34,796 nucleotides of DNA from Mizuhopecten yessoensis. Taxonomy: Eukaryota. The notes under the pieces were generated by a model. The model had not been told where the DNA came from, made no database searches, and was given only the letters and a program-made list of their open reading frames with translations. A program made the position numbers and the translations under genes. Shown in pieces: positions 7,560-34,796 of this stretch. Location of the stretch: the NCBI RefSeq assembly GCF_002113885.1, contig NW_018407210.1, forward strand, positions 106,497 through 141,292, written 5' to 3'. Position 1 is the stretch's first letter. Each line of letters opens with the position of its first letter.

Positions 7560-10500
7560 CAAATTACCTGATTTCTCTTAATATGTCTCCCTGTAGCTAG
7601 ATTACCTTACATCTCTCGCTACTATGTTTTCTGAAATTGATTAAGTACATGTTCTTTTTCTGATGACCTGATGTCACTCTACAGCTAGATTACCTGATGT
7701 CTCTCTACAGCTAGATTACCTGATGTCTCTCTACAGCTAGATTACCTGATGTCTCTCTACAGCTAGATTACCTGATGTCACTCTACAGCTAGATTACCCG
7801 ATGTCTCTCCACAGCTAGATTACCTGATGTCTCTCCACAGCTAGATTACCTGATGTCACCCTATAGCTAGATTACCTGATGTCTCTCTACAACTAGATTA
7901 CCTGATGTCACTCTATAGCTAGATTATCTGATGTCTCTCTACAGCTAAATGACCTGATGTCTCTCTACAACTAGATTACCTGATGTCACTCTATAGCTAA
8001 ATGACCTGATGTCTATCTACAGCTAGATTACCCGATGACTCTCTATAGCTAGATTACCTGATGTCTCTCTACAGCCAGATTACCTGATGTCACTCTACAA
8101 CTAGATGACCTAATGTCTCTCTACAGCCTTACTACCTGATGCCTCTCTACAGCTAGCTTACCTGATGTCTCTCTATAGCTTTACTACCTGATGTCTCTCT
8201 AGAGCTAGATGACCTGATGCCTCTCTACAGCTAGATTACCTGATGTTTCTCTACAGCTAGATTACCTGATGTCACTCTATAGCTAAATGACCTGATGTCT
8301 CTCTACAGCAAGCTTACCTGATGTCTCTCTACAGCTAGATGACCTGATGCCTCTCTACAGCTAGCTTACCTGATGTCTCTCTACAGCTAGATGACCTGAT
8401 GTCTCTCTACAGCTAGATTACCTGATGTCTCTCTACAGCTAGATTACCTGATGTCTCTCTACAGCTAGATTACCTGATGTCTCTCTACAGCTAGATTACC
8501 TGATGTCTCTCTACAGCTAGATTACCTGATGTCTCTCTACAGCTAGATTACCTGATGTCTCTCTACAGCTAGATGACCTGATGTCTCTCTACAGCTAGAT
8601 TACCTGATGTCACTCTATAGCTTTACTACCTGATGTCACTCTACAACTAGATTACCCGATGCCTCTCTACAGCTAGATTACCTTATGCCTCTCTACAGCT
8701 AGCTTACCTCTAGATTACCTGATGTCACGCTATAGCTAAATGACCTGATGTCTATCTACAGCTAGATTACCTGATGTCTCTCTACAGCTAAATGACCTGA
8801 TGTCTCTCTACAACTAGATTACCTGATGTCACGCTATAGCTAAATGACCTGATGTCTATCTACAGCTAGATTACCCGATGACTCTCTATAGCTAGATTAC
8901 CTGATGTCTCTCTACAGCTAGATTACCTGATGTCACTCTATAGCTAGATTACCTGATGTCTCTCTACAGCTAGATTACCTGATGCCTCTCTACAGCTAGA
9001 TTACCTGATGTTTCTCTACAGCTAGATTACCTGATGTCACTCTACAGCTAAATGACCTGATGTCTCTCTACAGCTAGCTTACCTGATGTCTCTCTATAGC
9101 TAGATGACCTGATGCCTCTCTACAGCTAGATTACCTGATGTTTCTCTACAGCTAGATTACCTGATGTCACTCTACAGCTAAATGACCTGATGTCTCTCTA
9201 CAGCTAGCTTACCTGATGTCTCTCTACAGCTAGATGACCTGATGCCTCTCTACAGCTAGCTTACCTGATGTCTCTCTACAGCTAGATGACCTGATGTCTC
9301 TCTACAGCTAGATTACCTGATGTCTCTCTACAGCTAGATTACCTGATGTCACTCTATAGCTTTACTTCCTGATGTCACTCTACAGCTAGCTTCCCTGATG
9401 TCTCTCTACAGCTAGATTACCTGATGCCTCTCTACAGCTAGCTTCCCTGATGTCTCTCTACAGCTAAATGACCTGATGTCTCTCTACAGCTAGATTATTT
9501 GATGCCTCTCTACAGCTAGATTACCTGATGCCTCTCTACAGCTATCTTACCTGATGTCTCTCTATATCTAGATGACCTGATGCCCCCCTACAGCTAGATT
9601 ACCTGATGCGTCTCTACAGCTAGCTTACATGATGTCTCTCTACAGCTATATAACTTGATGCCTCTCTACAGCTAGGTTACCTGATGTCTCTCTATAGCTA
9701 GATTACCTGATGCGTCTCTACAGCTATATAACTTGATGTCTCTCTACAGCTATATAACTTGATGTCTCTCTACAGCTAGCCTACCTGATGTCTCTCTACA
9801 GCTAGATTACCTGATGTCACTCTATAGCTAAATGACCTGATGTCTCTCCACAGCTAGCTTACCTGATGTCTCTCTATGGCTTTACTACCTGATGTCTCTC
9901 TATAGCTAGATGACCTGATGCCTCTCTACAGCTAGATTACCTGATGTCACTCTATAGCTAAATGACCTGATGTCTCTCCACAGCTAGCTTACCTGATGTC
10001 TCTCTACGGCTTTACTACCTGATGTCTCTCTATAGCTAGATGACCTGATGCCTCTCTACAGCTAGATTACCTGATGTCACTCTATAGCTAAATGACCTGA
10101 TGTCTCTCTACAGCTAGCTTACCTGATGTCTCTCTACAGCTAGATGACCTGATGCCTCTCTACAGCTAGCTTACCTGATGTCTCTCTACAGCTATATTAC
10201 CTGATGCCTCTCTACAGCTATATAACTTGATGTCTCTCTACAGCTAGATTACCTGATGTCTCTCTACAGCTAGATTATCTGATGTCTCTCTACAGCTAGA
10301 TGACCTGATGCCTCTCTACAGCTAGCATACCTGATGTCTCTTTACCGCTATATTACCTGATGCCTCTCTACAGCTAGCTTACCTCATGTCTCTCTACAGC
10401 TATATTATCTGATGCCCTCTACAGCTATATTATCTGATGCCTCTCTACAGATATATAACTTGATGTCTCTCTACAGCTATATTACCTGATGCCTCTCTAC

Positions 10501-13500
10501 AGATATATAACTTGATGTCTCTCTACAGCTATATTACCTGATGCCTCTCTACAGCTAGATTAACTGATGACTCTCTACAGCTAGATTACCTGATGTCTCC
10601 CCACAGCTAAATGACCTGATGTCTCTCTACAGCCAGCTTACCTGATGTCTCTCTACAGCTAGATGACCTGATGCCTCTCTACAGCTAGATGACCTGATGC
10701 CTCTCTACAGCTAGCTTCCCTGATGCCTCTCTACAGCTAGCTTACCTGATGTCTCTTTACAGCTATATTACCTGATGCATCTCTACAGCTATATAACTTG
10801 ATGTCTCTCTTCAGCTAGATTACCTGATGTCTCTCTACAGCTAGCTTACCTGATGTCTCTCCACAGCTAGATTACCTGATGTCTCTCTACAGCTAGCTTA
10901 CCTGATGTCTCTCCACAGCTAGATTACCTGATGTCTCTCTACAGCTAGCTTACCTGATGTCTCTTTACAGCTATATTACCTGATGCATCTCTACAGCTAT
11001 ATAACTTGATGTCTCTCTTCAGCTAGATTACCTGATGTCTCTCTACAGCTAGATTTCCTGATGTCTCTCTACAGCTAGGTGACCTTATGTCTCTCTACAG
11101 CTAGATTACCTGATGCCTCTCTAAAGCTATATAACTTGATGTCTCTCTACAGCTAGATTACCTGATCAGCTAGCTTACCTGATGTCTCTCTATAGCTCTA
11201 CTACCTGATGTCTCTCTATAGCTAGATGACCTGATGCCTCTCTCTACAGCTATATAACTTGATGTCTCTCTACAGCTAGATTACCTGATCAGCTAGCTTA
11301 CCTGATGTCTCTCTATAGTTTTACTACCTGATGTCTCTCTATAGCTAGATGACCTGATGTCACTCTATAGCTAAATGACCTGATGTCTCTCTACAGCGAG
11401 ATTGTTTGATGCCTCTCTACAGCTAGATTACCTGATGTTTCTCTACAGCTAGATTACCTGATGTCACTATATAGCTAAATGACCTGATGTCTCTCTACAG
11501 CGAGATTGTTTGATGCCTCTCTACAGCTAGATTACCTGATGCCTCTCTACAGCTAGATTACCTGATGTCCCTCTATAGCTAAATGACCTGATGCCTCTCT
11601 AAAGCTAGCTTACCTGATGTCTCTCTACAGCTATATAATCTGATGCCTCTCTACAGCTATATTAACTGATGCCTCTATAAAGCTAGCTTACCTGATGCCT
11701 CTCTACAGCTAGATTAACTGATGACTCTCTACAGCTAGATTACCTGATGTCTCCCCACAGCTAAATGACCTGATGTCTCTCTACAGCCAGCTTACCTGAT
11801 GTCTCTCTACAGCTAGATGACCTGATGTCTCTCTACAGCTAGATGACCTGATGCCTCTCTACAGCTAGATGACCTAATGTCTCTCTACAGCTTTACTACC
11901 TGATGTCTCTCTACAGCTTGCTTACCTGATGTCTCTCTATAGCTTTACTACCTGATGTCTCTTTACAACTAGCTTACCTGATGTCTCTCCACAGCTAGAT
12001 TACCTGATGTCTCTCTACAGCTATATAATCTGATGCCTCTCTACAGCTATATTAACTGATGCCTCTATAAAGCTAGCTTACCTGATGCCTCTCTACAGCT
12101 AGCTGACCTGATGTCTCTCTACAGCTATATTATCTGATGCCCTCGACAGCTATATTATCTGATGCCTCTCTACAGTTATATTACCTGATGCCTCTCTCCA
12201 GATATATAACTTGATGTCTCTCTACAGCTATATTACCTGATGCCTCTCTACAGCTAGATTAACTGATGACTCTCTACAGCTAGATTACCTGAAGTCACTC
12301 TATAGCTGAATGACCTGATTGCTCTCTATAGCTTTACTACCTGATGTCTCTTTACAACTAGCTTACCTGATGTCTCTCCACAGCTAGCTTACCTGATGTC
12401 TCTCTACAACTAGATTATCTGATGCCTCTCTACAGCTAGATTAACTGATGACTCTCTACAGCTAGATTACCTGATGTCTCCCCACAGCTAAATGACCTGA
12501 TGTCTCTCTACAGCGAGATTGTTTGATGCCTCTCTACAGCTAGATTACCTGATGTTTCTCTACAGCTAGATTACCTGATGTCACTATATAGCTAAATGAC
12601 CTGATGTCTCTCTACAGCCAGCTTACCTGATGTCTCTCTACAGCTAGATGACCTGATGCCTCTCTACAGCTAGATGACCTGATGCCTCTCTACAGCTAGC
12701 ATACCTGATGTCTCTTTACCGCTATATTACCTGATGCCTCTCTACAGCTACATAACTTGATGTCTCTCTACAGCTAGCTTACCTGATGCCTCTCTACAGC
12801 TAGATTAACTGATGACTCTCTACAGCTAGATTACCTGATGTCACTATATAGCTAAATGACCTGATGTCTCTCTACAGCGAGATTGTTTGATGCCTCTCTA
12901 CAGCTAGATTACCTGATGCCTCTCTAAAGCTATATAACTTGATGTCTCTCTACAGCTAGCTTACCTGATGCCTCTCTACAGCTAGCTGACCTGATGTCTC
13001 TCTACAGCTATATTATCTGATGCCTCTCTACAGCTATATTCCCTGATGTCTATAGCTAGATGACCTGATGCCTCTCTACAGCTAGCTTCCCTGATGCCTC
13101 TCTACAGCTAGCTTACCTAATGTCTCTCTACAGCTATATTATCTGATGCCCTCTACAGCTATATTATCTGATGCCTCTCTACAGATATATAACTTGATGT
13201 CTCTCTACAGCTATATTACCTGATGTCACTCTACAGCTAGCTTACCTGATGTCTCTCTACAGCTATATTATCTGATGCCTCTCTACAGCTATATTAACTG
13301 ATGCCTCTCTACAGCTAGCTTACCTGATGCCTCTCTACAGCTAGCTTACCTGATGTCTCTCTACAGCTATATTATCTGATGCCCTCTACAGCTATATTAT
13401 CTGATGCCTCTCTACAGCTATATTACCTGATGCCTCTCTACAGATATATAACTTGATGTCTCTCTACAGCTATATTACCTGATGTCTCTCTACAGCTATA

Positions 13501-13810
13501 TTACCTGATGTCACTCTACAGCTAGCTTACCTGATGTCACTCTATAGCTAGATGACCCGATGCCTCTCTACAGCTAGATTACCTGATGTCACTCTATAGC
13601 TTTACTACCTGATGTCTCTCTACAGCTAGATTACCTGATGTCACTCTACAGCTATATTACCTGATGCCTCTCTACAGCTATATTATATTACCTGATGCCT
13701 CTCTACAGCTATATTATCTGATGCCTCTCTACAGCTATATTACCTGATGTCTATCTACAGCTATATTACTTGATAGCTTTATAGCTAGATTTGCTGATAT
13801 CCATATACAG
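7560..13810. repeat. 26-bp satellite, ~236 monomers (AGCTAGATTACCTGATGTCTCTCTAC with variants AAATGACC / GCTTACC / TATATTACC / TTTACTACC), organised in places into higher-order repeats
   Basis: Period 26 measured at 7681 to 7707. HOR examples: 9000-9125 matches 9120-9245, 9780-9900 matches 9900-10020, and 11380-11500 matches 12480-12600. Confidence 0.95.
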
Positions 13811-14452
13811 TGAAACCTAACTTACTCACGAATATCCCCTACCCTTCGAATAGTTCACTTGGTCCCGACCGTATTCTTATATATATTTGTAAATTAACCT
13901 TGGATTCCTCAAACAGCTATTGCTCTAATACCTTAGCTGTATTCCTCGAACACTGATTTATCACCCTCCACTCAAAACCTTAGTATTCCACCTATCTATT
14001 CGTTGAACAGGTAGACACACCAGCGTGTATAGCTGCGTGCCGTCGATATGCCTAGAGGCACAGGCTGCGGTCCACGCTCATTGTGCTAAATTAGAGGATT
14101 AACGGCAGTATCATTCAGTAACTGTACCGTTACCCTGGTGTAGCTGCATTATCATTTTGTGTGCATATTTATTATTTTCCAGACGATGTGTTGACATTGA
14201 TGATTTGGCGGGAAGGTTAATTCACTGGGTGTGTAAAACCCTATTTCAGCATTGCAATATTAGGCGGAAATCTCATAGCAGATTCTCCACCAACTTTTTA
14301 TAGATATTCAAACTTGAGTTCGTCATAACATGATAACAGGGATTGAAGATTTTCTTCATTTTAAAATAATCAAAGAGTTCCACACGTTTTGATATTTTGT
14401 AAAGTTAACCTAGCCGATTACAGTATGGTGGACTATGTCAAAACGACAAGCT

Positions 14453-14531
14453 TCTAGATATCGACTTAGCCATTCTGGACTAGAAGGCTAGATATCGACT
14501 TAGCCATTCTGGACTAGTAGGCTAGATATCT
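14453..14531. repeat. 34-bp tandem repeat, ~2.3 copies (CTAGATATCGACTTAGCCATTCTGGACTAGAAGG)
   Basis: TAGATA recurs at 14455, 14489 and 14523. Confidence 0.75.
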
Positions 14532-17500
14532 ATTTTTTCCGCCCGTTCATATACCTGCGGCAATGCTACACCTCTTTGTCTCCTAACTGACATCTCACAT
14601 TCCCTCCACGCAACATCGTCAGCATTGGCCTAGTTAGAAATAATATAGAAAAGTATTCACAAAGTGAAACAGCAGAATTTGACAACTTAAACACCAGAAA
14701 TTGTATACAAAGAACAGATCTAGTTTCCCAACTCCCCTTGCCTTGACAAGGGTGGACTGCATTACCTAGAGCCCTATGAGCCTAAATGTCTAGCGGAGTG
14801 AAATTCATTCATAATTTAAGGACTTAAAGAATGGTTTAAGTTGGAAACATTTTTTCAAGACAACTTTCATCTGAAGCCCCTTTCACAAAGATGCTCTCTG
14901 CATTTTGTATAGTCCTTATGAGGAAACATGTACCAGTATTTCTCCTATATTACAAGCCTACATGTTGTCTCAGTCTCCTCATAAAGATATTTTCTTCTTT
15001 GGTTTTTGACCCTTATACCTCCCATGTGAATATTGTTTTAGATTGTTCAATATCAACCCCTTTAGGACCTATCTATTAGTCCCTTTAGCAGCAAGGCCAA
15101 TCAATAACACATAACAGAAAGGGAAGCCCCTTGTAAAAACGCTTAGAACCAATATTTATTTTTCCCCTTTGTAATTCTATTCTTTATCCCTTATAGCTTG
15201 TTGTTCCTACATTTGGAGACCAGTGGATTTCACCTCTGATTCTCCTAAGTCTTCAGGAGATTAAAAAGTGGTACATGTAATGTCCTGTTTAAGGAAACAC
15301 CCCTCAACCCCTACCCTCCTACTTTGAGGAAACTTTAAGTCCATTGTCATAACGATGTTTCCTTTCATGTTTTGCTGAAATATGTTCGGTCTTTATATAA
15401 GGGAAGCTCAGACAAAGTAATGCAAAGTTCATTATTTATATATATTTTATCACACAACATTATAAGTCTTCTATGTGATAAACAACTTGTGGAATAATCT
15501 GATAACAGCTATGGCGGGTTGCTATGCCTATTTCCCCAAAGTTGTGATCCGCTACAGCGCGCGTGCCGCCGTGTACTGTCATGTGGTGTCCTCATGTATT
15601 TTTATATAGGTAGCTCTTTCGGAATCCTGTGTCTAAGAATAGATTATCTTAAACATACGAATTTAAGAAAATGGCTGTTAAAACATGCGTTTCTCGATAA
15701 AGACTCAACAAAATGTTTATTTCACGTTATTTATAATAATTCAAAACAAACCATACGCTGTATGTAGCAAAAGATCGTACAATCATTACCAACAAGTTTT
15801 AAAAGGATATAATTTTCATTACTACTGCCTGCATCATGCCATTACCTGTTTTTATTACGAATCACACATCTTCCAAATTACATATAATTTTCGAATAACG
15901 TGTATTGCGCTGCTTACTTTGTATTGCAGTCTTCCTGTTTGCCACCAAGTGATTCCTATGTATCATATCTTCATTATTTATATTCAAGAAAATCTCAATC
16001 TCAAATCAGACCTATGGAAAGTATTAATAACGTTTGTGTTCATTATAGGGATATATATGGAAATCACATACCAATGGCGGTTCATCAGATTTCTCATCCA
16101 TAGCCATTTTCTTTTTCCTTTTTGGTAATTTTGGCACCGGTAAATTTTTAACCTGAATTTTTAAGTTTATGTACAATTTGATTTATTTAACTTGAAATAC
16201 TGTATACTGGGAGTTTCACTGCAGTTAAATTTTCGTCCTTTTTGTCCGCCAGAATGAGGGCAAATATATCATTACAGCCAACAATTGTTAACAACATAAT
16301 GATAATAAAAGTTAAGGGTAAATTTCATATTGGCTTAAAATGGATCTTACTTTTGAGGGGTGAAAATTTCCCGGAACACAGTATTTGATTTGCAATATTG
16401 GACAAAACAGATTTGATACGAGATTTCGCAATATGGTACACCTCAATATCCTGGTTCCATTCATAAGCGACACAAATGCTCACACAATAGCTACAATAAT
16501 ATCTTATCATTAAAGGTATGACTTATGACTTTAAATTATAATCCTCACAGACAACATGTCAAATCTGTAATTAATGTAATTGCGAATAAGTTGGGCAAGC
16601 AAAAAGGAACTATAAGATATTAAGGCAAAGTAGCATCATTGTTTTACGAATATATTTTTATGAATATACTTATGTTGACATTGAAATTCTGAAAGACAAT
16701 CTCATTTTAGGTATTGCCATATTTGACCAAAATATTTCATCAAAATCTGCTTAGAAATCAAGTTGGTAGAGTGAGATGGTTCACAAATTTCTATCAACAT
16801 TTACAAAGACCTAATGCCATCAATCCTGGAGCCCTGAAGTATAAACTCATTCCAGATGTTCTCTTACTTGTTCTTTGTATAAAGCTTGATGAAATTCTGT
16901 TAACCAAATGATGTCCCTAGAGACATGATATTGAATCGGAACAAGACTGGACAGGGGTAACACCATATGATCCCAATAAAATGTTTGGTGGGGGAGGAGG
17001 GACAGGGACAGGGGCCGTAATGATAAAAAACCTTTACAAGTGTGTCCACACATACCCATTGCTGAACAGGACATAACTAGAATTTCTTGAATCACCTCAG
17101 CTATAATCACAATCAAAGCACAACAGCAATAAATATGGTTACCTAGATGTAACTGACAGAACATATTACTCTCTTTGTTATAATTTGTGTGTCTGACACT
17201 GGTGACAGATCTTGCTGAAAATTGACAGGTTCAACTCCTATTCTGTCTAAACAGTACCTCGAAAAAGTATATGCCTAAACATTTCATACCACAGAGATGC
17301 TTGATAAAGATTGTCAGATGTATCTCCTGGCAAAAAAGAGTACAGATAGAATGGCCACTCTGACCATAAGTGCTGTCCTGTTTCCTTGTAATGAACAACT
17401 GCCCTCATCCTGTCATGGAACGATTCGGGTACAGGTTATGGTGGAGTCATTTTAATAGGCTTATCAAATGGAACTCCTAGTGCTAACTTCTTCACTGACC

Positions 17501-17617
17501 ATTGACCCATTGATGATCATAGACAAGCACATGCCTAAACCATTCACTCACAAGCCCCCCCCCCCCCTTTCCTCCTTGGATGAAGGGAAATAATTGGCTT
17601 TGAAAATCAGGTGGGAT

Positions 17618-18900
17618 ATCTCATGACAATGGGATCCCTGAACCCTCTTGACTACCACCATCCCTAGACAATGGGATCCCCAAACCCTCTTGACTACTGT
17701 CATCCCACGACAATAGGATACTTGAACCTTCCTGACAACTGCCATCCCACGACAATGGGATCCCTAGACCCTCGTGACTACTGCCATCCGAAGACAACAG
17801 GATCCCCAAACCCACCGGACTACTGCCATCCCACGACAATGAGACCCCTAGACCCTCCTGACTACTGCCATCGTAACACAACAAGATCCATAAACCCTCT
17901 TGACTACTGACATCCCACGACAATCGAATCCCTGGACCCACTTGACTACTGCCATCCCACGACAATCGAATCCCTGGACCCACTTGACTACTGCCATCCC
18001 ACGACAAGGGGATCCCTAGACCCTCTTGACTACTGCCATCGGAAGACAACAAGATCCATAACCCCTCTTGACTACTGCCATCCCACGTCAATGGGATCCC
18101 CAGACCCTCTTGACTACTGCAATTCGAAGACAACAGGATCCACAAACCCACCGGACTACTGCCCTCCCATGACAATGAGATCCCTAGACCCTCCTGCCTC
18201 CTGCCACCGGAAGACAACAAGATCCATAAACCCTCTTGACTACTGCCATCCCACGACAATCGAATCCCTGGACCCACTTGACTACTGCCATCCCACGACA
18301 ATGGGATCCCTAGACCCTCTTGACTACTGCCATTCGAAGACAACAGGATCCACAAACCCACCGGACTACTGCCATCCCATGACAATGAGATCCCTAGACC
18401 CTCTTGACTACTGCCATCCCACGACAGTGAGATCCCTGAACCCACTTGACTACTGCCATCCCACGACAATGGGATCCACAAACCCTATTGATTACTGCCA
18501 TCCGAAGACAACAGGATCCCCTGAGACCCTCTTGACTACTGCCATCGGAAGACAGCAGGATCCATAAACCCTCTTGACTACTGCCATCCCACGACAATCG
18601 GATCCCTGAACCCACTTGACTACTGCCGTCCCATGACAATGGGATCTCCAGACCCTCTTGACTACTGCCATCCCACGTCAATGGGATCCCCAGACCCTCT
18701 TGACTACAGCCATCCCATGACAATGTGATCCACAAACCCTCCTGACTTCTGCCATCCAATGACAACAGGATCCACAAACCATCTTGACTACAGCCATCCA
18801 ATGACAACAGGATCCACAAACCCTCTTGACTACAGCCAACCGATAACAACGGGATCCATAAACCCTCTTGACTACAGCCATCCAATGACAATGGGATCCC
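17618..18900. repeat. 42-bp satellite, ~30 copies (GACTACTGCCATCCCACGACAATGGGATCCCTAGACCCTCTT and variants)
   Basis: Period 42 measured at 17941 to 17983. The period is a multiple of 3, so both strands stay open (ORFs 17621..18481, 18091..18567, 18394..18903). Confidence 0.9.
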
Positions 18901-19667: not shown

Positions 19668-20686
19668 CCTGTCTCCTTAGAGCATGCATGCCGTTTTCCA
19701 TAGGCAGAGAGCTAAACCTTTGCTGTTTCTTTTTGCTTTTGATTGAAACCTTTGATTGCAAGCCTGAAAGAGGAGGTGGTGGAAGTGCTGCTGCTGATTG
19801 AAAAGCCATGGCTGATTGTGAAGGTGGGCGAGGAGGTCCTGCTGATTGAAAAGCCATGGCAGACTGTGGAGGAGGTCCTGCTGATTGAAAAGCCCTATCA
19901 GACTGTTGAATTGGTGGAGGAGGTCCTGCTGATTGAAAAGCCACGGCAGACAGTGGAATTGGTGGAGGAGGTCCTGCTGATTGAAAAGCCATGGCAGACT
20001 GTTGAGGTAGGGACATATATGACTTTAGAAGTGGGTGAGGAAAGCCTGGTGCTTTTAGGCACTGTATGGCATATTGTGGAGGTGGGGAAGGAGGTCCTGT
20101 TGATCTGGTATGGAGTGAAGGTGGGGGAGGAGGTCCTGCTGATTTAAAAGCCATGGCAGACTTTGGAGGTGGGGGAGGAAGTCCTGCTGTTTCAAAAAAC
20201 ATGGCAGACATTGGAGGTGGGGGAGGAGGTCCTGCTGATCTGTCAGGGAGTGGAGGTGGGGGAGGAGGTCCTGCTGATTTAAAAAACATGGCAGACTTTG
20301 GAGTTGGGGGAGGAGGTCCTGCTGATTTGGCAGAGAGTGAAGGTGGCGGAGGAGGTCTTGCTGATCTGGCAGAGTGTAGAGGTGGGGGAGGAGGTCTTGC
20401 TGATCTGGCAGAGTGAAGAGGTGGGGGAGGAGGTCCTGCTGATCTGGCAGAGTGTGGAGCTGGCGGAGGAGGTCTTGCTGATCTGGCAAGGTTTCTTGCT
20501 AATCTGGCAGAGCGTAGAGGTGGGGAAGGAGGTCCTGCTGAATTCAAAGCCATGGCAGATGATGGAGGTGGTTGAGGAAGAGAAGACAGACAACTTTCTG
20601 ATGTAAAAGCCATGGCAGAAGGTGGAAATTGGGGAGCTGCTTTTAAAGTCACGGCAGACCTTGGAGACCTTTTGTGCAGAACCCTG
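19668..20686 (-). CDS. candidate internal exon encoding a Pro-rich repetitive peptide (..SAMAFQSAGPPPPPP.. 16-aa repeats)
   Basis: The minus strand has a polypyrimidine tract plus TTGCAG acceptor at ~20687 (TACTGTTCTGTTGCAG|GG) and a CAG|GTATGT donor at ~19667. The open frame itself is weak evidence because the 48-bp repeat keeps several frames open. Confidence 0.25.
19780..20640. repeat. degenerate ~48-bp minisatellite (GGAGGAGGTCCTGCTGATTGAAAAGCCATGGCAGACTGTGGAGGTGGG and variants)
   Basis: Period 48 measured at 20160-20260. Five of the six frames are open across it. Confidence 0.8.
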
Positions 20687-21790: not shown

Positions 21791-22374
21791 ATAAAAACGC
21801 CGTTCAATCCATATATTTTCATTTTTATTAAAGAACAATTGTTTAATTTTATTTATTTGTTCTTAAATAATTTATTGATTTTCTGATTTTCTGCGTTTTG
21901 TATATGCGTCGTCCTTTAAACGACATTGGCGCAACAGCCCTATTTAAATTAAATTGGCGCCAATAATTAACCGTAGTCATTTGAGCGTTTGACGCAGGGG
22001 CATTCTCCATGTTATCCTAAGCGAAGCGACAAGACTCTCATTGAACAAGGTTAATCTATGACGTCAAAAGTAAACCATGTGTTTCGTCACAAGAGTTTTT
22101 GCTTCCATACTCAAATGAAATACATTTCTGCTGGGAATGTTCAAATAGTGGGTTGCAGCACAAAATGTAAATATATAAAGAGGGATGTATGTACCCTACC
22201 GTCAAAATAATATGTAGCATTTATAAACAGATCCCCTCTCCCCAAAATCGACTCCTATTACATAATTGATTACAAGTAAAACACAAATTATTTGAAATAC
22301 CAGAATAACACAATTTACAACTTTACATAGATCTATTTCCATACCTTCCCACTGGGGAATCCTCTTCCTCATCA

Positions 22375-22452
22375 TCAAACAGACCAAAGCCCATGTCATC
22401 ATCACACTCCTCCTCCTCCTCCTCCTCCTCCTCCTCCTCCTCCTCCGACATT
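22375..22452 (-). CDS. short acidic ORF MSEEEEEEEEEEEEECDDDMGFGLV*. Its C-terminus mimics the conserved ribosomal stalk P-protein (P0/P1/P2) tail ..EESDDDMGFGLFD. It may be the terminal exon of a P-like gene or a pseudogene fragment
   Basis: Translated by hand from the reverse complement of 22375-22452, with a TGA stop at 22375-22377. A TGTGTTACAG acceptor lies just upstream at ~22468-22474. The motif match is DDDMGFGL, 8 residues. Confidence 0.35.
22409..22447. repeat. (TCC)13 perfect microsatellite, which reads (GAG)13 on the minus strand
   Basis: Counted directly. Confidence 0.95.
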
Positions 22453-22699
22453 ACTTGCACTGCTTTCTGTAACACATTGAATTCCTGATCTTAACAACAC
22501 ACTTGATTTGATTGGATTTCTGATAATAAGGTTTTCAAGATTTCGAGATTTTTATTTTCAGCCACACTATATGTGGAACAAGAGGTCACATGTATAGGAT
22601 ACATTTATACAAACATTCATGGTGAAAATAACATCCCATTAGATATCTGATTATAATAACACAAATATTATAATCAACAGGTGATTCCTGGAAGTATTT

Positions 22700-23123: not shown

Positions 23124-23290
23124 CAAGAGGCCCAGAGGGCCTGTATCACTCACCTGGATCTTTATGCCAAACAAGGATATATATGGTTATGGGGTGGGGA
23201 TCTCAACTGTTTCACTGTCATGGCCCAGAAGTTAATGTCCTAGGGGTTTATCTCCATATACCCATCAATTGCATATATTAGCCCCTTAGC
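23124..23290 (+). mobile_element. conserved element head (CAAGAGGCCCAGAGGGCCTGTATCACTCACCTGGATCTTTATGCC...GTCCTAGGGGTTTATCTCC) that precedes a tandem array
   Basis: Near-identical copy at 23848-24010. Related copies at 5180, 25807, 25990 and 27984. It contains the stem AGGCCC-AGA-GGGCCT. Confidence 0.4.
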
Positions 23291-23847: not shown

Positions 23848-25035
23848 CAAGAGGCCCAGAGGGCCTGTATCACTCACCTGGATCTTTATGCCAAACAAGG
23901 ATATATATGGTTATGGGGTGGGGATCTCAACTGTTTCACTGTCATGGCCCATAAGTTAATGTCCTAGGGGTTTATCTCCATATCCCCATCAATTGCATAT
24001 ATTAGCCCCTTAGCCCCACTGAGGGTCAGCCCCTTAGCCCCCCTGAGGGTCAGCCCCTTAGTCCCACCGAGGGTCAGCCCCTTAGCCCCACTGAAGGTCA
24101 GCCCCTTAGCCCCACTGAGGGGCAGCCCCTTAGTCCGACTGACGGTCAGCCCCTTAGTCCCACCGAAGGTCAGCCCCTTAGTCCCACCGAGGGTCAGCCC
24201 CTTAGCCCCACTGAAGGTCAGCCCCTTAGCCCCACCGAAGGTCAGCCCCTTAGTCCCACCGAGGGTCAGCCCCTTAGTCCCACTGAGGGTCAGCCGCTTA
24301 GCGCCACTGACAGTCAGCCCCTTAGTCCCACTGATGGTCAGCCCCTTAGTCCCACTGAGGGTCAGACCCTTAGCCCCACTGACGGTCAGCCCCTTAGACC
24401 CACTGAGGGTCAGCCTCTTAGCGACACTGCCAGTCAGCCCCTTAGCCCCACTGATGGTCAGCCGCTTAGCCCCACTGAGGGTCAGCCCCTTAGCCCCACT
24501 GATGGTCAGTCCCTTAGCCCCACTGAGGGTCAGCCCCTTAGGCCCACTGAGGGTCAGCCCCTTAGTCCCACTGAGGGTCAGCCTCTTAGCGCCACTGACA
24601 GTCAGCCCCTTAGCCCCACTGATGGTCAGCCCCTTAGCCCCACTGAGGGTCAGCCCCTTAGTCCCACTGAGGGTCAGCCCCTTAGCCCCACTGAGGGTCA
24701 GCCCCTTAGTCCCACTGAGGGTCAGCCTCTTAGCCCCACTGACGGTCAGCCCCTTAGTCCCACTGAGGGTCAGCCCCTTAGCCCCACTGACGGTCAGTCC
24801 CTTAGCCCCACTGAGGGTCAGCCCCTTAGTCCTACTGAGGGTCAGCCCCTTAGCCCCACTGAGGGTCAGCCCCTCCTTTTGTTGAATTTTGAATCCTCAC
24901 CACCTGAGGATGCTTCCAGTCAAATTTAAATCAGTTTTTAAGAAGAAGTTGTTTGAAGAAATTGTTGATGGACGGACGATGGGTGCAACAGTATGGTGTA
25001 AGCTCACTTCGGACCTGGTGAGCTCATTACTCACA
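23848..25035 (+). mobile_element. complete-looking head + array + tail element: head 23848-24010, 24-bp array 24005-24885, tail with GATGGACGGACGATGG microsatellite, and palindrome AGCTCAC-TTCGGACCTG-GTGAGCT at 25001-25026
   Basis: Same module order as 27975-29230 and as the truncated copies elsewhere. All copies are on the plus strand. Confidence 0.4.
24005..24885. repeat. 24-bp tandem repeat, ~37 copies (GTCAGCCCCTTAGCCCCACTGAGG)
   Basis: Period 24 = 8 codons. Plus ORF 24334..24885 (PLAPLRVS repeats) is an artefact. Confidence 0.95.
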
Positions 25036-25354
25036 GAATATTGATTATAATAACACATTAGATTCCTGATCATATAACAATTATCATGTTGGTCTTTTTC
25101 CAGTCATTTAAAATTTCACAGAGCATACTCACCCCAATACCTTTGAGCATCATATATAGAGTATTTGATGTTTCAAGTTTGAACTCCTTTTCTATGGTAG
25201 GAGCCATTCTAAAGATAAAAAGCAGAACTCATTTTGAAATATATGTTTGGTTAAAAAGTTCATTCAACAGAGAAACTGATCTATCCACGGTTGACAAATT
25301 AAAACAGTGAAACACTGGAAAGGTTCATTTAGGTTCACTGGTGATGTTATTGAT

Positions 25355-25585
25355 ATGGGAGTTACTTCCCCTTGTTGACCACTGTGGTGAACAAGGTGAC
25401 GTAAACCTGGCTGAGCCGCTAAGTCCCCTGGTCTCTGTCCATAACGGGCCCCTGTTTTCTGATCTGGATGGCCTCCTTCACTTGTCGCACTCGCTGGTTA
25501 CTCTCTCTGTCCACGAGCAGGCTAAGATCATGGACAGAGAGAGTAACCAGCACAGTGGTGAACAAGGGGAAGTAACTCCCATATC
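25355..25585. repeat. nested perfect inverted repeats: outer 31-bp arms (TGGGAGTTACTTCCCCTTGTTGACCACTGTG at 25355-25390 against 25550-25585) and inner 21-bp arms (GCTGGTTACTCTCTCTGTCCA at 25491-25511 against 25531-25551)
   Basis: Reverse-complement symmetry read directly. Plus ORF 25341..25658 runs across it and is not credible as coding. Confidence 0.8.
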
Positions 25586-25806
25586 ACTAACGTCACCAGT
25601 GACCAAGCTGGCAGAATGTCAGCGTAACTGTCTGGGTAAGAACATTGTTTTTACATAGCAGTGACTCGATGAATCTCGCAAATATATAAAACAGTGAAAG
25701 CTTAATAGGAAGGCTTACAACAATGTAATAGAAAGAAATGATACATGATGTCACAAAACATAACTGTGAACTATTAAGACCAAACATGAGAAAGGTGGAT
25801 TACACA

Positions 25807-26060
25807 CAAGAGGCCTAGAGGGCCTGTATTGCTCACCTGGATCTTCATGCCCAGCAATGGTATATATAGCTATATATAAGTTGGGGATCTAAACCATTTC
25901 AACGTTATGGTCCAGTAATTAAGTCCCTAGGGGTTTGGCCAGACCCAAGCCTTAATATTAATATCATGATTGTTTGTTTCTTGATGCCCAACAATGATAT
26001 ATATGGTTATAGGGTGGGCATCTATTTCAAAGTTATGTCTCAGAAATTAAGTCCCTAGGG
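25807..26060 (+). mobile_element. two partial tandem copies of the element head (CAAGAGGCCTAGAGGGCCTGTATTGCTCACCTGGATCTTCATGCC ... TAAGTCCCTAGGGG)
   Basis: 25807-25960 and 25985-26060 align to each other and to 23124-23290. Confidence 0.35.
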
Positions 26061-26600: not shown

Positions 26601-27039
26601 ACAACAAGAGCACCGCGAGCAGAAGCATGATACGCCGGTCAGACCCCCAGAAGGGTATTGATATATTGGAAGCAGGTAGTGACATATGATATAAATGTGT
26701 TTACTGCCACCGTTTTGTTGGTGACGGTGACCTTGCCATTCATTTACTGTGTTTTTTGCGCAAGCTTTTTTGTGTTTCAGAATTACACTTTCATGGTCAA
26801 TGTTACGTTGGTATTACTAAAACTAGAACTTTGGTTTTGAGGTAGGAGTCTTGAACTGCAATTTGCACCCAGATATTATGGCATAATATACATAATACAT
26901 TGAGTTGATAGATTCAATTGTAAGATGAACTAATGATAGTCAAAAATATTTCATTTTGTTAAAGATGAATGCTGTAATTATATCTGTTAGATATGTTTGG
27001 TTTTTGTATTACCATACTAAATTTGAAATGAATTAAGCA

Positions 27040-27760
27040 AATAATCAAAAAGTTCTTACATTTTCGACAGAATGCCCTTACTTGGCAATGAAAAAAGGGC
27101 ATAACTCTGCTGAATAGTGTTTAAATGTCACAATTTAAGGACTCATTCCAAGCTTTCAGGTAATGAAACAACAAGGTAGTTTAATAAAAATCAGAGAACA
27201 ATTGTTTGAGTTATCTTGTAAACAAGGAAAAGTTAACAGCAAGAACTAAGTACAACGTAATATATGTTGAACGTTATTGCTTCAAGCATTACCGTACAAA
27301 ATTTGAAAGGAACTTATTAAAACATTATTTGAGTTCTCGCCTAAACAAGCAAAAGTTAACGGCAAAAACGATGAACAGCGATACTATGTTAAGTGTGATA
27401 TGCCAAAACGCGAAAAATTGAAACTCGACAGAAAAACCTGTAATATCTGTTGAACATTATTGCTTTTCTAGCATTACCATACAAAATTTGAAAGGAATTT
27501 ATTAAAAAATTAAAAAGTTCTTGCATTTACTACACAATGCCCTTATTTGGCAATGAAAAGTGGCACAACTCCACCAAAATGCATGTAAACTTCTGAAATG
27601 CAAACTCCTAAGATGTTATATTGGTATGCAATATGTGTACTAAATTTCATCAAACTATGTTCATGACTGAAGGCAGAAAAGTGATGACAAGGAAAAGTTT
27701 GATGGACATCAGACAACGCAGCCCATACCATAATACGACCCATCGGACGACGTGCGTATA
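27040..27760 (+). repeat. composite X/Y interspersed repeat (X: TTCTTGCATTTACTACACAATGCCCTTATTTGGCAATGAAAAG..; Y: ~165 bp CAAGGAAAAGTTAACGGCAAAAACGATGAACAGCG..ATTACC[G/A]TACAAAATTTGAAAGGAA, present twice in tandem), ending in a degenerate GGAC-type tail
   Basis: Order X 27040-27190, Y 27195-27350, Y 27350-27520, X plus tail 27520-27760. Second locus at 33545-33900. Confidence 0.6.
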
Positions 27761-28054
27761 AAACTGACTCCTTTTTGTCCAAGAAGGCCCTACACCAAAC
27801 TTGCATGGTTTAAATTTATCAACTCATACAGAAGAAGGATTTTTTTGTTTCCCCTATGTTATCCCTTATAGGTCCCTGCCCCTCTGCCACCAGGGGAACC
27901 ACACCCTCCGTTAATACAAAATTGAAGAAGCCTCTCCCAAGGATGTTCTTGCTATTTGGGGCAGGTGAACTAAATAAAACAGGAAGAGGGCCTGTATCGC
28001 TCACCTGAATATTTAAGCAGTCATAGCAAATTATTCTCATTAAATATTATATTG

Positions 28055-29229: not shown

Positions 29230-31680
29230 AACAAGGAATCATTAACCAGCTGGTAGATAACAACAAGGATCTACTAACCAGCTGGTAGATAACAACAAGG
29301 AATCATTAACCAGCTGGTAGATAACAACAAGGAACCACTAACCAGCTGGTAGATAACAACAAGGAACCACTAACCAGCTGGTAGATAACAACAAGGAATC
29401 ATTAACCAGCTGGTAGATAACAACAAGGAACCACTAACCAGCTGGTGGATAACAACAAGGATCCACTAACCAGCTGGTAGGTAACAACAAGGATCCACTA
29501 ACCAGCTGGTAGGTAACAACAAGGATCCACTAACCAGCTGGTAGATAATAATAAGGATCCACTAAGCAGCTGGTAGATAACAACAAGGAATCACTAACCA
29601 GCTGGGAGATAACAACAAGGATCCACTAACCAGCTGGTAGATAAAAACAAGGAATCACTTACCAGCTGGTAGATAACAACAAGGAACCACTTACCAGCTG
29701 GTAGATAACAACAAGGAACCACTTACCAGCTGGTAGATAACAACAAGGATCCACTCACCAGCTGGTAGATAACAACAAGGATCCACTAGCCAGCTGGTAG
29801 ATAACAACAAGGAATCACTTCCCAGCTGGTAGATAACAACAAGGATCCACTATCCAGCTGGTAGATAATAATAAGGATCCACTACCCAGCTGGTAGATAA
29901 CAACAAGGATCCACTAGCCAGCTGGTAGATAACAACAAGGAATCACTTCCCAGCTGGTAGATAACAACAAGGATCCACTAGCCAGCTGGTAGATAACAAC
30001 AAGGAATCACTTCCCAGCTGGTAGATAACAACAAGGATCCACTAGCCAGCTGGTAGATAACAACAAGGAATCACTTACCAGCTGGTATATAATAATAAGG
30101 ATCCACTAACCAGCTGGTAGATAACAACAAGGCATCACTTACCAGCTGGTAGATAATAATAAGGATCCACTAAGCAGCTGGTAGATAACAACAAGGAATC
30201 ACTAACCAGCTGGTAGCTAACAACAAGGAATCACTAACCAGCTGGTAGATAATAACAAGGAACCACTTACCAGCTGGTAGATAACAACAAGGATCCACTA
30301 AACAGCTGGTAGATAACAACAAGGATCCACTAACCAGCTGGGAGATAACAACAAGGAATCACTAACCAGCTGGTAGATAACGACAAGGAATCACTAACCA
30401 GCTGGTAGATAACGACAAGGAATCACTAACCAGCTGGTAGATAACGACAAGGAATCACTAACCAGCTGGTAGATAACAACAAGGATCCACTAACCAGCTG
30501 GGAGATAACAACAAGGAATCACTAACCAGCTGGTAGATAACGACAAGGAATCACTAACCAGCTGGTAGATAACGACAAGGAATCACTAACCAGCTGGTAG
30601 ATAACAACAAGGATCCACTCACCAGCTGGTAGATAACAACAAGGATCCACTAGCCAGCTGGTAGATAACAACAAGGAATCACTTCCCAGCTGGTAGATAA
30701 CAACAAGGATCCACTAACCAGCTGGTAGATAATAACAAGGAATCACTTACCAGCTGGTAGATAATAACAAGGAAACACTAACCAGCTGGTAGATAACAAC
30801 AAGGAATCCCTAACCAGCTGGTAGATAACAACAAGGAATCCCTAACCAGCTGGTAGATAACAACAAGGAATCACTTACCAGCTGGTAAATAACAACAAGG
30901 AATCACTTACCAGCTGGTAAATAACAACAAGGAATCACTTACCAGCTGGTAAATAACAACAAGGAATCACTTACCAGCTGGTAAATAACAACAAGGAATC
31001 ACTTACCAGCTGGTATATAATAATAAGGATCCACTAACCAGCTGGTAGTTAACAACAAGGAATCATTAACCAGCTGGTAGATAACAACAAGGAACCACTT
31101 ACCAGCTGGTAGATAACAACAAGGAATCACTTCCCAGCTGGTAGATAACAACAAGGATCCACTATCCAGCTGGTAGATAATAATAAGGATCCACTAAGCA
31201 GCTGGTAGATAACAACAAGGAATCACTAACCAGCTGGTAGCTAACAACAAGGAATCACTAACCAGCTGGTAGCTAACAACAAGGAATCACTAACCAGCTG
31301 GTAGATAATAACAAGGAATCACTAACCAGCTGGTAGATAATAACAAGGAACCACTTACCAGCTGGTAGATAACAACAAGGATCCACTCACCAGCTGGTAG
31401 ATAACAACAAGGATCCACTATCCAGCTGGTAGATAATAATAAGGATCCACTAACCAGCTGGTAGATAACAACTAGGAATCACTAACCAGCTGGTAGATAA
31501 CAACAAGGAATCACTTACCAGCTGGTAGATAATAATAAGGATCCACTAACCAGCTGGTAGATAACAACAAGGAATCACTAACCAGCTGGTAGATAACAAC
31601 AAGGAATCACTAACCAGCTGGTAGATAACAACAAGGATCCACTAACCAGCTGGTAGATAATAATAAGGATCCACTAACCA
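29230..31680. repeat. 32-bp satellite, ~77 copies (ACCAGCTGGTAGATAACAACAAGGAATCACTA; variants GGATCCACTAACC, GGAACCACTTACC, ATAATAATAAGG) with local higher-order repeats
   Basis: Period 32 measured at 29281 to 29313. HOR: 30300-30440 matches 30460-30600. A homogenised GGTAAATAACAACAAGGAATCACTTACC run spans 30860-31010. Confidence 0.95.
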
Positions 31681-31709: not shown

Positions 31710-31715
31710 TTTATT
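31710..31715 (-). promoter_or_regulatory. AATAAA polyadenylation signal (in CATTGATTAATAAAACC) downstream of the candidate terminal exon
   Basis: Position relative to the stop at 31781-31783. The A/T-rich context lowers its specificity. Confidence 0.3.
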
Positions 31716-31780
31716 AATCAATGAACAACTAACTAGATATGTTACAACAATACTTTTTTTTTTACAAATTCTTTAAACAC

Positions 31781-31963
31781 TCACGAGTATGAAGTCTTTT
31801 GGTTTTTTTCTTCTCTTTCTTCTACATCTTCATATATACCATCTTCACACAGATAAACATCCATCTTTTCTTTAACCAGAACAGCATCATCATACATCAT
31901 ACTCTGTTCAGTTGCCCATTCCATTGCACAATCGTCAGGCTCATATTCATCACCCCCCTGGTA
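31781..31963 (-). CDS. candidate 3'-terminal coding exon: YQGGDEYEPDDCAMEWATEQSMMYDDAVLVKEKMDVYLCEDGIYEDVEEREEKNQKTSYS*
   Basis: Acceptor TGATGTTTTAG| immediately 5' (minus strand). The exon is in phase 0. Stop TGA at 31781-31783, and AATAAA about 66 nt downstream. Confidence 0.3.
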   Translation of the reverse strand, partial: YQGGDEYEPDDCAMEWATEQSMMYDDAVLVKEKMDVYLCEDGIYEDVEEREEKNQKTSYS

Positions 31964-32066
31964 CTAAAACATCACAGATCCCATTTAATATCAAAATTGA
32001 AATTTTCCACCTGTTATCTACATCGTCTCACTTTCTCAATAAATTTCGCTTAAAGTTTGATGACTT

Positions 32067-32160
32067 TTGATATATGACAAGAGTCCCAGGGACCTTAAGA
32101 AGACCTGAGTTTGATATATGACAAGAGTCCCAGGGACCTTAAGAAGACCCGAGTTTGTTT
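32067..32160. repeat. 44-bp tandem duplication, ~2.1 copies (TTTGATATATGACAAGAGTCCCAGGGACCTTAAGAAGACCTGAG)
   Basis: Copies begin at 32067 and 32111. Confidence 0.8.
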
Positions 32161-32618
32161 TAGCAATTATGTTATTGAAATAATCGTTATATAGGGCAAG
32201 ATACAGTAGGACATGTAAATATGGCAACTGTTGATTCACTGACAATCTCATTTTGCCCCGAGCTCCCAGGTCATGGCCTTACTTATACCACAAAACTGTC
32301 ATCTCATGATAATTATTTTATTAAAGTTTTAATTGTTTTCTACCTTATAAACAAAACATCACCTAATAAACAAATACCTATACTTTAAATTGTTATTTCA
32401 AAGTATATGGTAAACCCCCCACCTTTAGGGGAGAAATGGTGACTTTGAGGTAACGAAATTCACAGTTTTTATATAGCACCTTAGGATCTTTCCATTTGTC
32501 CAATGTCAAATCAACAGACTTATAATATTATACTAGTGTCAAACCAACTAAAAACATCCCTATCAGATTAACAAAACATATTTATATGGTGTTGATGTGA
32601 TATGTTATGTGAACTTAC

Positions 32619-32684
32619 GTAAGTTTTAGCATGTAATTCATCTAAAGTTATGCTTTCTTCCTCCTCTTCCTCCTCTTCCTCCTC
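32619..32684 (-). CDS. candidate small exon encoding EEEEEEEEEESITLDELHAKTY, ending at a perfect GTAAGT splice donor; the 5' boundary is uncertain
   Basis: Minus strand reads ...GAG GAG GAA... ACT TAC|GTAAGTTC. Imperfect codon-phased (GAG GAG GAA)n. The exon ends in phase 0, which matches the phase-0 start of the candidate terminal exon at 31963. Confidence 0.25.
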
Positions 32685-33019
32685 CTTAGCAAAGCAGAAA
32701 AAAAAATGATTTATGATATTGTAATAATCATATACTCTTATACTTTCTATATGTGTAACTGTAAGGTGTTCAATATTGCTATATATAGTCTACAGGTAAC
32801 AGAGGTAGTTTTTATCGTGTGTAGTCAACCTTGATAGAATACCCTTCACTTATATTTTCCATCGATAATTGTACGACTAGATTATTTAGGTTATATCATC
32901 TTACATAAGACCAGCGGTCACTGGCCCTGGGTCGATCTTTTTCTCTCTCCTTGGAAGACGACAAGGTAATTAATATTATAGTTTTGGAATAACGACCTCT
33001 CTACACCTTGCTGATAGTG

Positions 33020-33230
33020 AATTGCTGGCGTAACAGGGGACCTGGGATGAGCTGTACTGCAGGGGTATTAGCGCGGCACTGAGTACGCTGGGAAACGCCA
33101 GTAGCGCCAGGAAAGTGGCGCCAGCGTATTTGCTGACCAAGTGGTTCCCGGTAATTCCGTTATCGGCGAGGGTAGCGGTGGCCGCACGTTCCAGAGGTTC
33201 GGAAGCCTGTGTTACTATATGTAAATAGCT
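33020..33230. other. compositionally distinct GC- and CpG-rich island of ~200 bp in an otherwise AT-rich stretch
   Basis: Dense CpGs (GCGCGGCAC, ACGCTGG, AACGCC, AGCGCC, GGCGCCAGCG, CCCGG, ATCGGCGAGGG, GCGGTGGCCGCACG). No ORF. Not recognisable as a tRNA or snRNA. Confidence 0.4.
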
Positions 33231-33544: not shown

Positions 33545-33900
33545 GCTTTTAGTGAGAAAAGTGTTTTGGCTTGAGTTATAGCGTAAATAAGCAAAAATTT
33601 ATGGCAAAAACGATGAACAGCGTTCCTATATGTCAAGTGTGATATGCCAAAACGTGGAAAGTTGAAACTCAACAGAAAAACCTGTAACATATGTTGATCA
33701 TTATTGCTCCTAGCATTACCATACAAAATTTAAAAGGAGTTGATTAAAATATAAACGAATTCTTGCATTTACTACACAATGCCCTTATTTGGCAATAGAA
33801 GGGGCATAACTCCACCAAAAATGCATGTAAACTTCTGAAATGCGAACTTGTCTGAGCTATACTGTTATGCAATAGGTGGACCAACCCAAGGGAACTGAAG
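33545..33900 (+). repeat. second locus of the X/Y interspersed repeat (Y 33545-33760, X 33760-33900)
   Basis: Aligns to 27350-27620. Confidence 0.6.
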
Positions 33901-34137: not shown

Positions 34138-34393
34138 TTATTTATTTTTTTAAACTTTATTTATTTTTTTAAACTTTATTTATTTTACAACAATTATGAC
34201 ACAAGTTATTTCAACTTATATTCATCACTCTTGTAAGCCCGGAGGTCTTAATGTGGGAGGAAACCAGAGTACCCCAAGAAAACCCACGTGGTCGGGTAGG
34301 TGACCCCATACCTTTTCACGTCTGATCAGGGAATCAAACCCCGGCTGCCTTGGTGAAAGACAAGTGCACTATCCACTGCGCCACCCGACCACC
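34138..34393 (-). mobile_element. tRNA-derived SINE, minus strand: tRNA-like head (A box TGGCGCAGTGG, reverse complement of 34373-34383; B box GGTTTGATTCC, reverse complement of 34330-34340), a central region containing GGTACTCTGGTTTCCTCCCACA, and a 3' tail made of (TAAATAAAGTTTAAAAAAA)x2 at 34138-34187
   Basis: Box A and box B sit at tRNA-like spacing, but the acceptor and T stems do not pair, so this is a SINE and not a tRNA gene. The head is closest to tRNA-Arg/Met-type A boxes, from memory. Confidence 0.6.
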
Positions 34394-34796
34394 CAGGCCT
34401 ATTCTTTCCCTGAACCTGCAGTTCGGTTTCTTGTGAAAACTTTAGGTAATCTTTTTTATGCCTAAATATGACTGGGCAGAGGGGGTACCTCCAACCTTTC
34501 AAGTGTTCTCTAGAATCAGCACAAGAAAAATAATTTAAATTGCATATTTTCAAAACTTATAACAGATTACCAAAACGTTTGGACATCTTTCAACAATACC
34601 ATTTTAAATAAATGGAAATTGAAAAAAAAATCTATATATAATGTTCTGAAACAAAAAGAAATCATAGATTTGTCCTCAAAATTGCAACACGTAATATTAT
34701 AGGTAGCTTCACAAACCTATTATATCTAATTACAATAAAAACTCAGTAGAGCATGAAATAAACAAGAAATGTGTATATCTACTTGAGGATATAGTT

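Follow-up and report, generated by a model that had tools for sequence, protein, structure and literature searches.

Does the minus strand near one end of a 34.8-kb stretch of Mizuhopecten yessoensis DNA (contig NW_018407210.1, positions 106,497 to 141,292; the whole stretch of 34,796 nt is called the window here) carry the 3' end of a protein-coding gene? An earlier note on the letters of this DNA proposed that it does, with a short poly-Glu exon (exon 1) that ends in phase 0, a GTAAGT donor, an intron of about 655 bp and a terminal exon (exon 2) that is open up to a TGA with AATAAA beyond it. We find that these elements are present, that they join in frame and that exon 2 behaves statistically like coding sequence in the proposed frame and strand, whereas the signals cited in favor of the gene are by themselves at chance level. 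To judge from the sequence, the two candidates are probably real, ordinary and orphan coding exons. The features of the locus, given in the direction in which a minus-strand transcript would be read, are the following:

32685-32706, minus strand: upstream acceptor of exon 1, a T-rich tract (32706-32688) and then AAG, with its AG at 32686-32685
32684-32619, minus strand: candidate exon 1, 66 nt, symmetric (phase 0 to 0), encoding E10-SITLDELHAKTY
32624-32613, minus strand: 12-nt palindrome ACTTACGTAAGT, the 3' half of which is the GTAAGT donor
32618-32613, minus strand: GTAAGT 5' splice donor, directly 3' of exon 1
32618-31964, minus strand: proposed GT-AG intron, 655 nt
31966-31964, minus strand: TAG (within TTTTAG) of the first acceptor of exon 2, TAG|TAC, exon start 31963, phase 0
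31960-31958, minus strand: CAG of the second acceptor of exon 2, CAG|GGG, exon start 31957, in frame and 6 nt downstream
31963-31784, minus strand: coding part of candidate exon 2, a 60-codon phase-0 open reading frame (ORF) YQGGDEYEPDD...EEKNQKTSYS, in full YQGGDEYEPDDCAMEWATEQSMMYDDAVLVKEKMDVYLCEDGIYEDVEEREEKNQKTSYS
31784-31779, minus strand: alternative 5' splice donor GTGAGT, a consensus site that overlaps the TGA
31783-31781, minus strand: TGA stop that closes the exon 2 ORF
31715-31710, minus strand: AATAAA hexamer, 65 nt beyond the stop
Example peptide of the predicted product: MDVYLCEDGIYEDVEER

The poly-Glu exon, its phase-0 end and its donor lie where the earlier note had placed them. 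The codons of exon 1 read GAG GAG GAA x3 GAA AGC ATA ACT TTA GAT GAA TTA CAT GCT AAA ACT TAC, and the minus-strand frame to which they belong (...AKEEEEEEEEEESITLDELHAKTY) terminates with the exon at 32619. The first 29 nt of the exon (32656-32684), which make up its poly-Glu part, are a perfect (GAGGAGGAA)x3.2 microsatellite (period 9, 100% match in Tandem Repeats Finder, TRF). The gap before the phase-0 ORF of exon 2 measures exactly 655 nt, and a 44-bp tandem duplication (32066-32157, 2.1 copies, 97% match) is found inside it. As had been proposed, the two ORFs join in frame (phase 0/0) to give a product of 82 aa that ends at the TGA. This product has 38% D/E, a net charge of about -25, a grand average of hydropathy of -1.31 and 7 Tyr, which stand in the contexts YEPDD, YDDA and IYEDV; exon 2 by itself contributes 19 D/E and 6 Y and is thus both acidic and Tyr-rich. 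The upstream acceptor of exon 1, the 9-bp microsatellite, the GTGAGT over the stop, the CAG|G acceptor and the codon periodicity had not been mentioned before.

The splice sites around exon 1 were scored with position weight matrices (PWM) of generic vertebrate-like frequencies, not trained on the taxon, the ranks of which are relative only: the acceptor T10CTGCTTTGCTAAG|GAG ranks 8 among 1075 minus-strand non-satellite AG sites, and the GTAAGT donor ranks 59 among 1078 GT sites (94.5th percentile), no higher because its exonic side, TAC, is non-consensus. The ORF of exon 1 contains no in-frame ATG upstream of the exon. Exon 1 therefore cannot be a first exon, and the gene must begin further upstream, probably outside the window.

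What carries the case for a gene is the codon periodicity of exon 2. Outside the satellites, 100 ORFs reach 50 codons between stops, and in each of them the bases were tabulated by codon position. The exon 2 ORF reaches a chi2 of 30.3 (6 degrees of freedom, p = 3.4e-5) and is second among the 100, the first being exon A of a neighboring exon pair. Its codons have 48% G at position 1, 55% A at position 2, and 38% T and 7% C at position 3. A G-rich first and an A-rich second position are the universal sense-strand pattern, so that the base use itself picks out the proposed frame on the minus strand. A Markov null built on the local kilobase yielded 2000 ORFs with 60 or more codons, the highest chi2 of which was 25.6, so that none reached 30.3; in a conditional null of 1459 sequences that share the dinucleotide composition of exon 2 and have an open frame, 2 did (p ~1.4e-3). 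In 90-nt sliding windows the periodic signal switches on at ~31969 and off at ~31790, which are the ORF boundaries, and the proposed intron and the 3' flank show no codon periodicity in the same windows.

No tandem unit that spans the exon 2 ORF was detected by TRF at a minimum score of 30, the only repeat being a 15-nt CATCATA x2, and the decay of a simple microsatellite therefore explains the periodicity poorly, although it keeps a small probability. When all non-satellite DNA was scanned blindly in 120-nt windows (p < 1e-3), only four regions were flagged, 19729-20670, 22315-22536, 31795-31968 and 32617-32736, all of them open on the minus strand; they correspond to exon B and exon A of the neighboring pair, exon 2 and exon 1, respectively, and the signal of exon 1 stems from its microsatellite. 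A simple periodicity test thus set four real-looking exon candidates apart from about 100 comparable ORFs. On this evidence we regard it as fairly likely that exon 2 is coding now or was so until recently.

Against this stand the signals on which the proposal was originally based. After removal of the large arrays, 18,252 nt of non-satellite DNA were left, which were dinucleotide-shuffled 200 times in 1-kb blocks. The configuration counted, on both strands, consisted of at least 22 open codons that lead up to a GTAAGT donor, followed within 50-3000 nt by an AG with at least 8 of the 12 preceding bases pyrimidines and then at least 60 in-frame open codons; in its extended form it also had AATAAA within 200 nt past the stop. 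The shuffled sequences held 3.7 configurations on average and at least one in 88.5% of the 200 cases, or in 41% with the AATAAA included. The real non-satellite DNA holds exactly one, the exon 1/exon 2 pair. The combination of splice and poly(A) signals is by itself at chance level, and these signals do not establish a gene. In AT-rich eukaryotic DNA, most stretches of 20 kb will by chance contain a consensus donor with an in-frame acceptor ORF, and a phase-compatible join has an a priori chance of 1 in 3.

Several details of the locus point the same way. Half of exon 1 is the perfect microsatellite, and its 12 unique codons show no periodicity of their own (p = 0.5), being too short a sample. 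The TAG acceptor is present and in frame as proposed, but it is weak and resembles a typical AG (PWM score -5.03, rank 440 of 1075, 59th percentile), and the CAG|G site 6 nt downstream scores better, at +0.94. The acceptor of exon A is equally pyrimidine-poor, and weak polypyrimidine tracts may therefore be normal in this genome. From 32.7 to 34.8 kb no upstream exon, start codon or periodic region was identified. The locus is, moreover, wedged between satellites, a short interspersed nuclear element (SINE) and other repeats, and the splice-site ranks quoted here come from untrained matrices.

Two observations to which the earlier note had drawn attention lose their meaning. It is true that an in-frame stop coincides with the acceptor AG (TAG 31966-31964), but this follows from the way in which ORFs are delimited: of the 163 ORFs that are 50 codons or longer, 40 begin right after a TAG. 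The palindrome across the junction of exon 1 and donor exists as well, but 23 palindromes of 12 nt occur in the window where about 10 are expected, and its significance was rejected on that ground.

The terminal status of exon 2 is uncertain. The TGA, the AATAAA at 65 nt and a GT-rich stretch (TTGTGTT) ~25 nt downstream of the hexamer, after which a 32-bp satellite starts at 31680, speak for a last exon. For an internal exon speaks the GTGAGT overlapping the stop, which ranks 40 of 1078 and thus above the exon 1 donor; its use would leave exon 2 as an internal exon of 179 nt with a phase-2 end. The minus strand of the window has 39 AATAAA hexamers in all, and this one alone is therefore weak evidence. 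The idea that the 3' untranslated and poly(A) region is degenerate satellite was dropped: the 32 nt at 31719-31750 match the satellite unit at 66% in ungapped comparison only, and the gapped score of 16 compares with a shuffle mean of 12.7 and a maximum of 20.

Homology searches with the 82-aa peptide also weigh against a gene at face value. No relative was found in a word-indexed search of 5.8 billion clusters, among the PDB sequences or among metagenome and viral contigs scanned with back-translated patterns, and phmmer, run exhaustively over 1.84 billion representatives, gave no true relative. Both phmmer matches, P0001 and P0002, were rejected: they are tandem-repeat proteins, and their scores add up from 5 short stretches (12-19 residues each). 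When the 47-aa ATG ORF was looked up by its exact product, no called gene identical to it was recorded. Controls from the same window fared no better: the 379-aa product of exons A and B had no match in the protein search, an exon A/B fragment had none in the metagenome contigs, and for the exon A peptide the word index returned no match and did not even collect the P proteins that it resembles. The failure of the 82-aa peptide to match therefore hardly counts against coding, and the databases evidently lack this lineage or such fast-evolving disordered proteins. Within the 34.8-kb window, exons 1 and 2 have no second copy, and only GAG/CTC simple-repeat matches are found.

How would such a gene work? 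It would be a minus-strand, lineage-specific gene in a repeat-rich genome, with a pre-mRNA read from high to low coordinates, and the poly-Glu run of exon 1 would derive from a young GAG/GAA microsatellite. A GUAAGU donor is complementary to the 5' end of U1 small nuclear RNA (snRNA). The U1 small nuclear ribonucleoprotein would recognize the donor after exon 1, the 655-nt intron would be removed, and exon 2 would be joined in phase 0 at the TAG or, more likely, at the CAG (31960-31958). Exon 2 would add a very acidic, Tyr-rich and presumably disordered segment, translation would stop at the TGA (31783-31781), and the transcript would be cleaved after the AATAAA (31715-31710), just before the 32-bp satellite. 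It is speculation that tyrosines in an acidic context (e.g., EDGIYEDV) serve as phospho-acceptors or SH2-type docking sites. The precise arrangement of the earlier note, with exon 1 spliced to a terminal exon 2 as the 3' end of the gene, is held only tentatively, and we place it somewhat short of even.

Set beside the 3' end of an ordinary U2-type GT-AG gene, the candidate pair likewise has a GTAAGT donor, an AG acceptor, a phase-compatible join, periodicity in exon 2, a stop, an AATAAA at 65 nt and a GT-rich downstream stretch; it differs in the weak tract of its acceptor, in the competing donor on its stop, and in that its product matched no homolog in the searches. The predicted protein also resembles orphan disordered acidic proteins with microsatellite-coded homopolymers, as it has an E10 encoded by (GAGGAGGAA)n and no relatives found, although these proteins form a descriptive class and not a homologous family. 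If real, the locus would add one more lineage-specific gene for a disordered acidic tail to those of an invertebrate genome dense in repeats, which would help its annotation and would not be surprising.

The pair is not the best evidence for a gene in the window, as had been claimed. Some 9 kb downstream on the same strand, two further putative exons have stronger splice sites and a recognizable protein motif, are better supported than exons 1 and 2 and make the earlier statement an overstatement:

22466-22345, minus strand: exon A, ttacAG acceptor and AAG|GTATGG donor, encoding KAVQVMS-E13-CDDDMGFGLFDDEEEDSPVG(R), phase 0 to 2
20683-19669, minus strand: exon B, 1015 nt, Pro-rich and fully open, with (SAMAFQSAGPPPPP)-like repeats and the acceptor tcttgctactgttctgttgcAG|G

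Exon A ends as ...GGA AG|GTATGG in phase 2 (donor rank 15 of 1078), and its poly-E is a (CTC)13 microsatellite at 22407-22446. Exon B ends as ...AGA CAG|GTATGT at 19669, with an acceptor of rank 5 of 1075 and a donor of rank 10 of 1078; its repeats resemble SAMAF(Q/K)SAGPPPPP, and the exon lies within a 39/48-bp minisatellite. The two exons join in frame over 1137 nt into 379 aa (junction VGR|VLHKRSPRS...). The gene must continue below 19.6 kb; a Pfam scan of its possible downstream exons in 13775-17617, in three minus-strand frames, gave nothing. We regard the A+B product as real, and a minus-strand gene 9 kb downstream makes exons 1 and 2 more credible from the outset.

The more intriguing object of the window is exon A itself, since it carries an exact and internal copy of DDDMGFGLFD, the C-terminal tail motif of the ribosomal P-stalk. 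Translational GTPases are recruited by this tail, to which ricin-type toxins also bind. In a phmmer search of the PDB, exon A matches the 60S acidic protein P2 with E = 6.6e-5, and all 28 matches with E < 1.2 are P0, P1 or P2, although the score against Pfam PF00428 (Ribosomal_60s), 21.6 bits, is below the cutoff of 28.1; the A+B product has no Pfam domain besides this weak match. The likeness to the stalk proteins P0, P1 and P2 consists of the E-rich run and the motif, which is identical to the conserved C-terminal tail. In the ribosomal proteins, however, the tail stands at the extreme C-terminus and is accompanied by an N-terminal dimerization domain, whereas in exon A it is internal and followed by DEEEDSPVGR and the donor. 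The exons of the N-terminal P-protein domain have no counterpart in the window, where tblastn with human P0, P1 and P2 and an eEF1B fragment found the tail and no other P-protein part. The 82-aa peptide of exons 1 and 2 shares with the P proteins only a trivial poly-E similarity. Exon A could belong to a non-ribosomal protein with a stalk-tail mimic or be an exonized fragment of an RPLP gene; a literature search on GFGLFD outside ribosomal proteins gave nothing useful.

The neighborhood of exons A and B offers an alternative to the two-exon 3' end, in which the GTGAGT at 31784-31779 is used, the TGA is spliced out, exon 2 is internal and the gene runs on through satellite-filled introns to exons A and B; in a variant, exon 1 is also spliced directly to exon A, and exon 2 serves as an alternative last exon. 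The rank of this donor above that of exon 1 fits such a gene, as do the strong sites and in-frame join of exons A and B on the same strand, the location of all four periodic regions of the window on the minus strand, the poly-Glu and acidic character common to exons 1 and A, and the phase-0 end of exon 1 and phase-0 start of exon A, which would join in frame. Each phase match, however, has a 1-in-3 chance, the stop is followed by AATAAA at canonical spacing, and exon 2 would end in phase 2 via the GTGAGT, so that its direct join to exon A hits a stop and at least one extra intermediate exon of length 3n+1 is needed, where no further periodic region exists between 31.7 and 22.5 kb. We therefore consider the longer gene decidedly unlikely. 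Its product would be one long acidic and proline-rich disordered protein. That exons 1, 2, A and B form one gene for a non-ribosomal protein with an internal P-stalk tail, possibly a molecular mimic, is more doubtful still; such a protein could bind translational GTPases, GCN2 or toxins like the ribosome-inactivating proteins away from the ribosome.

It is also conceivable, if somewhat unlikely, that there is no gene, and that ORFs, GT-AG sites and AATAAA came together by chance in AT-rich, purine-skewed intergenic or intronic DNA beside a satellite, the periodicity of exon 2 being the residue of an old (GAW)n microsatellite comparable to the GAG repeats at 32656-32684 and 22407-22446. The chance rate of the signals in the shuffles, the want of homologs, the weak TAG acceptor and the perfect microsatellite of exon 1 all agree with this, as do the two antisense frames open across exon 2 (86 and 64 codons), which are expected of low-complexity purine-rich DNA, and the 66% resemblance of 31719-31750 to the satellite unit. 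That resemblance, however, is not significant in gapped alignment, and the failed searches are uninformative, since the stronger 379-aa product is equally matchless. Decayed microsatellites normally lose their phase through indels, but exon 2 keeps one phase for 180 nt and shows no detectable repeat unit, the signal ends at the ORF ends, and the conditional p of 1.4e-3 remains to be explained. Alternatively, exon 2 may be a relic of coding sequence, left by a pseudogene or by the ORF of a transposable element, that is still periodic but lies outside a functional transcript. Coding-like periodicity with no upstream start or partner exon detected within 2 kb would suit a relic, and debris of mobile elements lies nearby (the SINE at ~34250-34400 and a dispersed repeat at 33571-33884 / 27329-27643). 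Yet exon 2 has no second copy in the window, matches no protein family, whether of transposable elements or otherwise, and is intact from acceptor through stop, which makes a relic very unlikely.

The setting of all these exons is an AT-rich window (GC ~37% outside repeats), nearly half of which is tandem repeats; five large arrays together occupy more than one third of it:

1757-4219: 51-bp tandem array, 2.5 kb
7662-13774: 26-bp tandem array, 6.1 kb
17618-18900: 42-bp tandem array
24004-24874: 24-bp tandem array
29230-31680: 32-bp tandem array (the satellite beside exon 2), 2.45 kb

The edge of the 32-bp array is 30 nt from the AATAAA of the candidate gene, and many of its monomers contain GTAAGT. 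Over the whole window, 12 two-exon configurations can be defined by signals, and 11 of these 12 involve this array.

Upstream of exon 1, an isolated GC- and CpG-rich block of ~230 nt (33000-33230) interrupts AT-rich surroundings. It is open over 87 codons in a minus-strand frame (…ERAATATLADNGITGNHLVSKYAGATFLALLAFPSVLSAALIPLQ…) and has no Rfam match, occurs only once in the window and shows no codon periodicity. A tRNA-derived SINE occupies 34250-34400 on the minus strand, with a tRNA-like head followed by a core ...GGGTTTTCTTGGGGTACTCTGGTTTCCTCCCAC...; the head (34319-34389) is a pseudo-tRNA for ARAGORN and scores 23.7 bits with the Rfam tRNA model, below the threshold, and is the sole signal in Rfam searches in both gathering and E-value modes. 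The dispersed repeat of ~315 nt at 33571-33884 matches 27329-27643 with 85% identity in the same orientation, and further fragments of its family are found at 27008-27107 and 27257-27325.

Between the two exon pairs, a foldback or MITE-like element (miniature inverted-repeat transposable element) lies at 25335-25602, with 55-nt arms of 93% complementarity, a spacing of 158 nt between them and an inner 24-nt hairpin. It accounts for the several frames that are open on both strands at 25.3-25.6 kb, and this multi-frame-open block was ruled out as a first exon because it is the foldback element. Another dispersed element is present in four minus-strand copies (23134-23161, 23858-23885, 25817-25844 and 27985-28012), the common sequence of which, AGATCCAG|GTGAGYRATACAGGCCCTCT, contains a 5' splice donor that fits the consensus perfectly. 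The four copies are the four highest-scoring donors of the window, and exon hunts based on signals are consequently misled by them.

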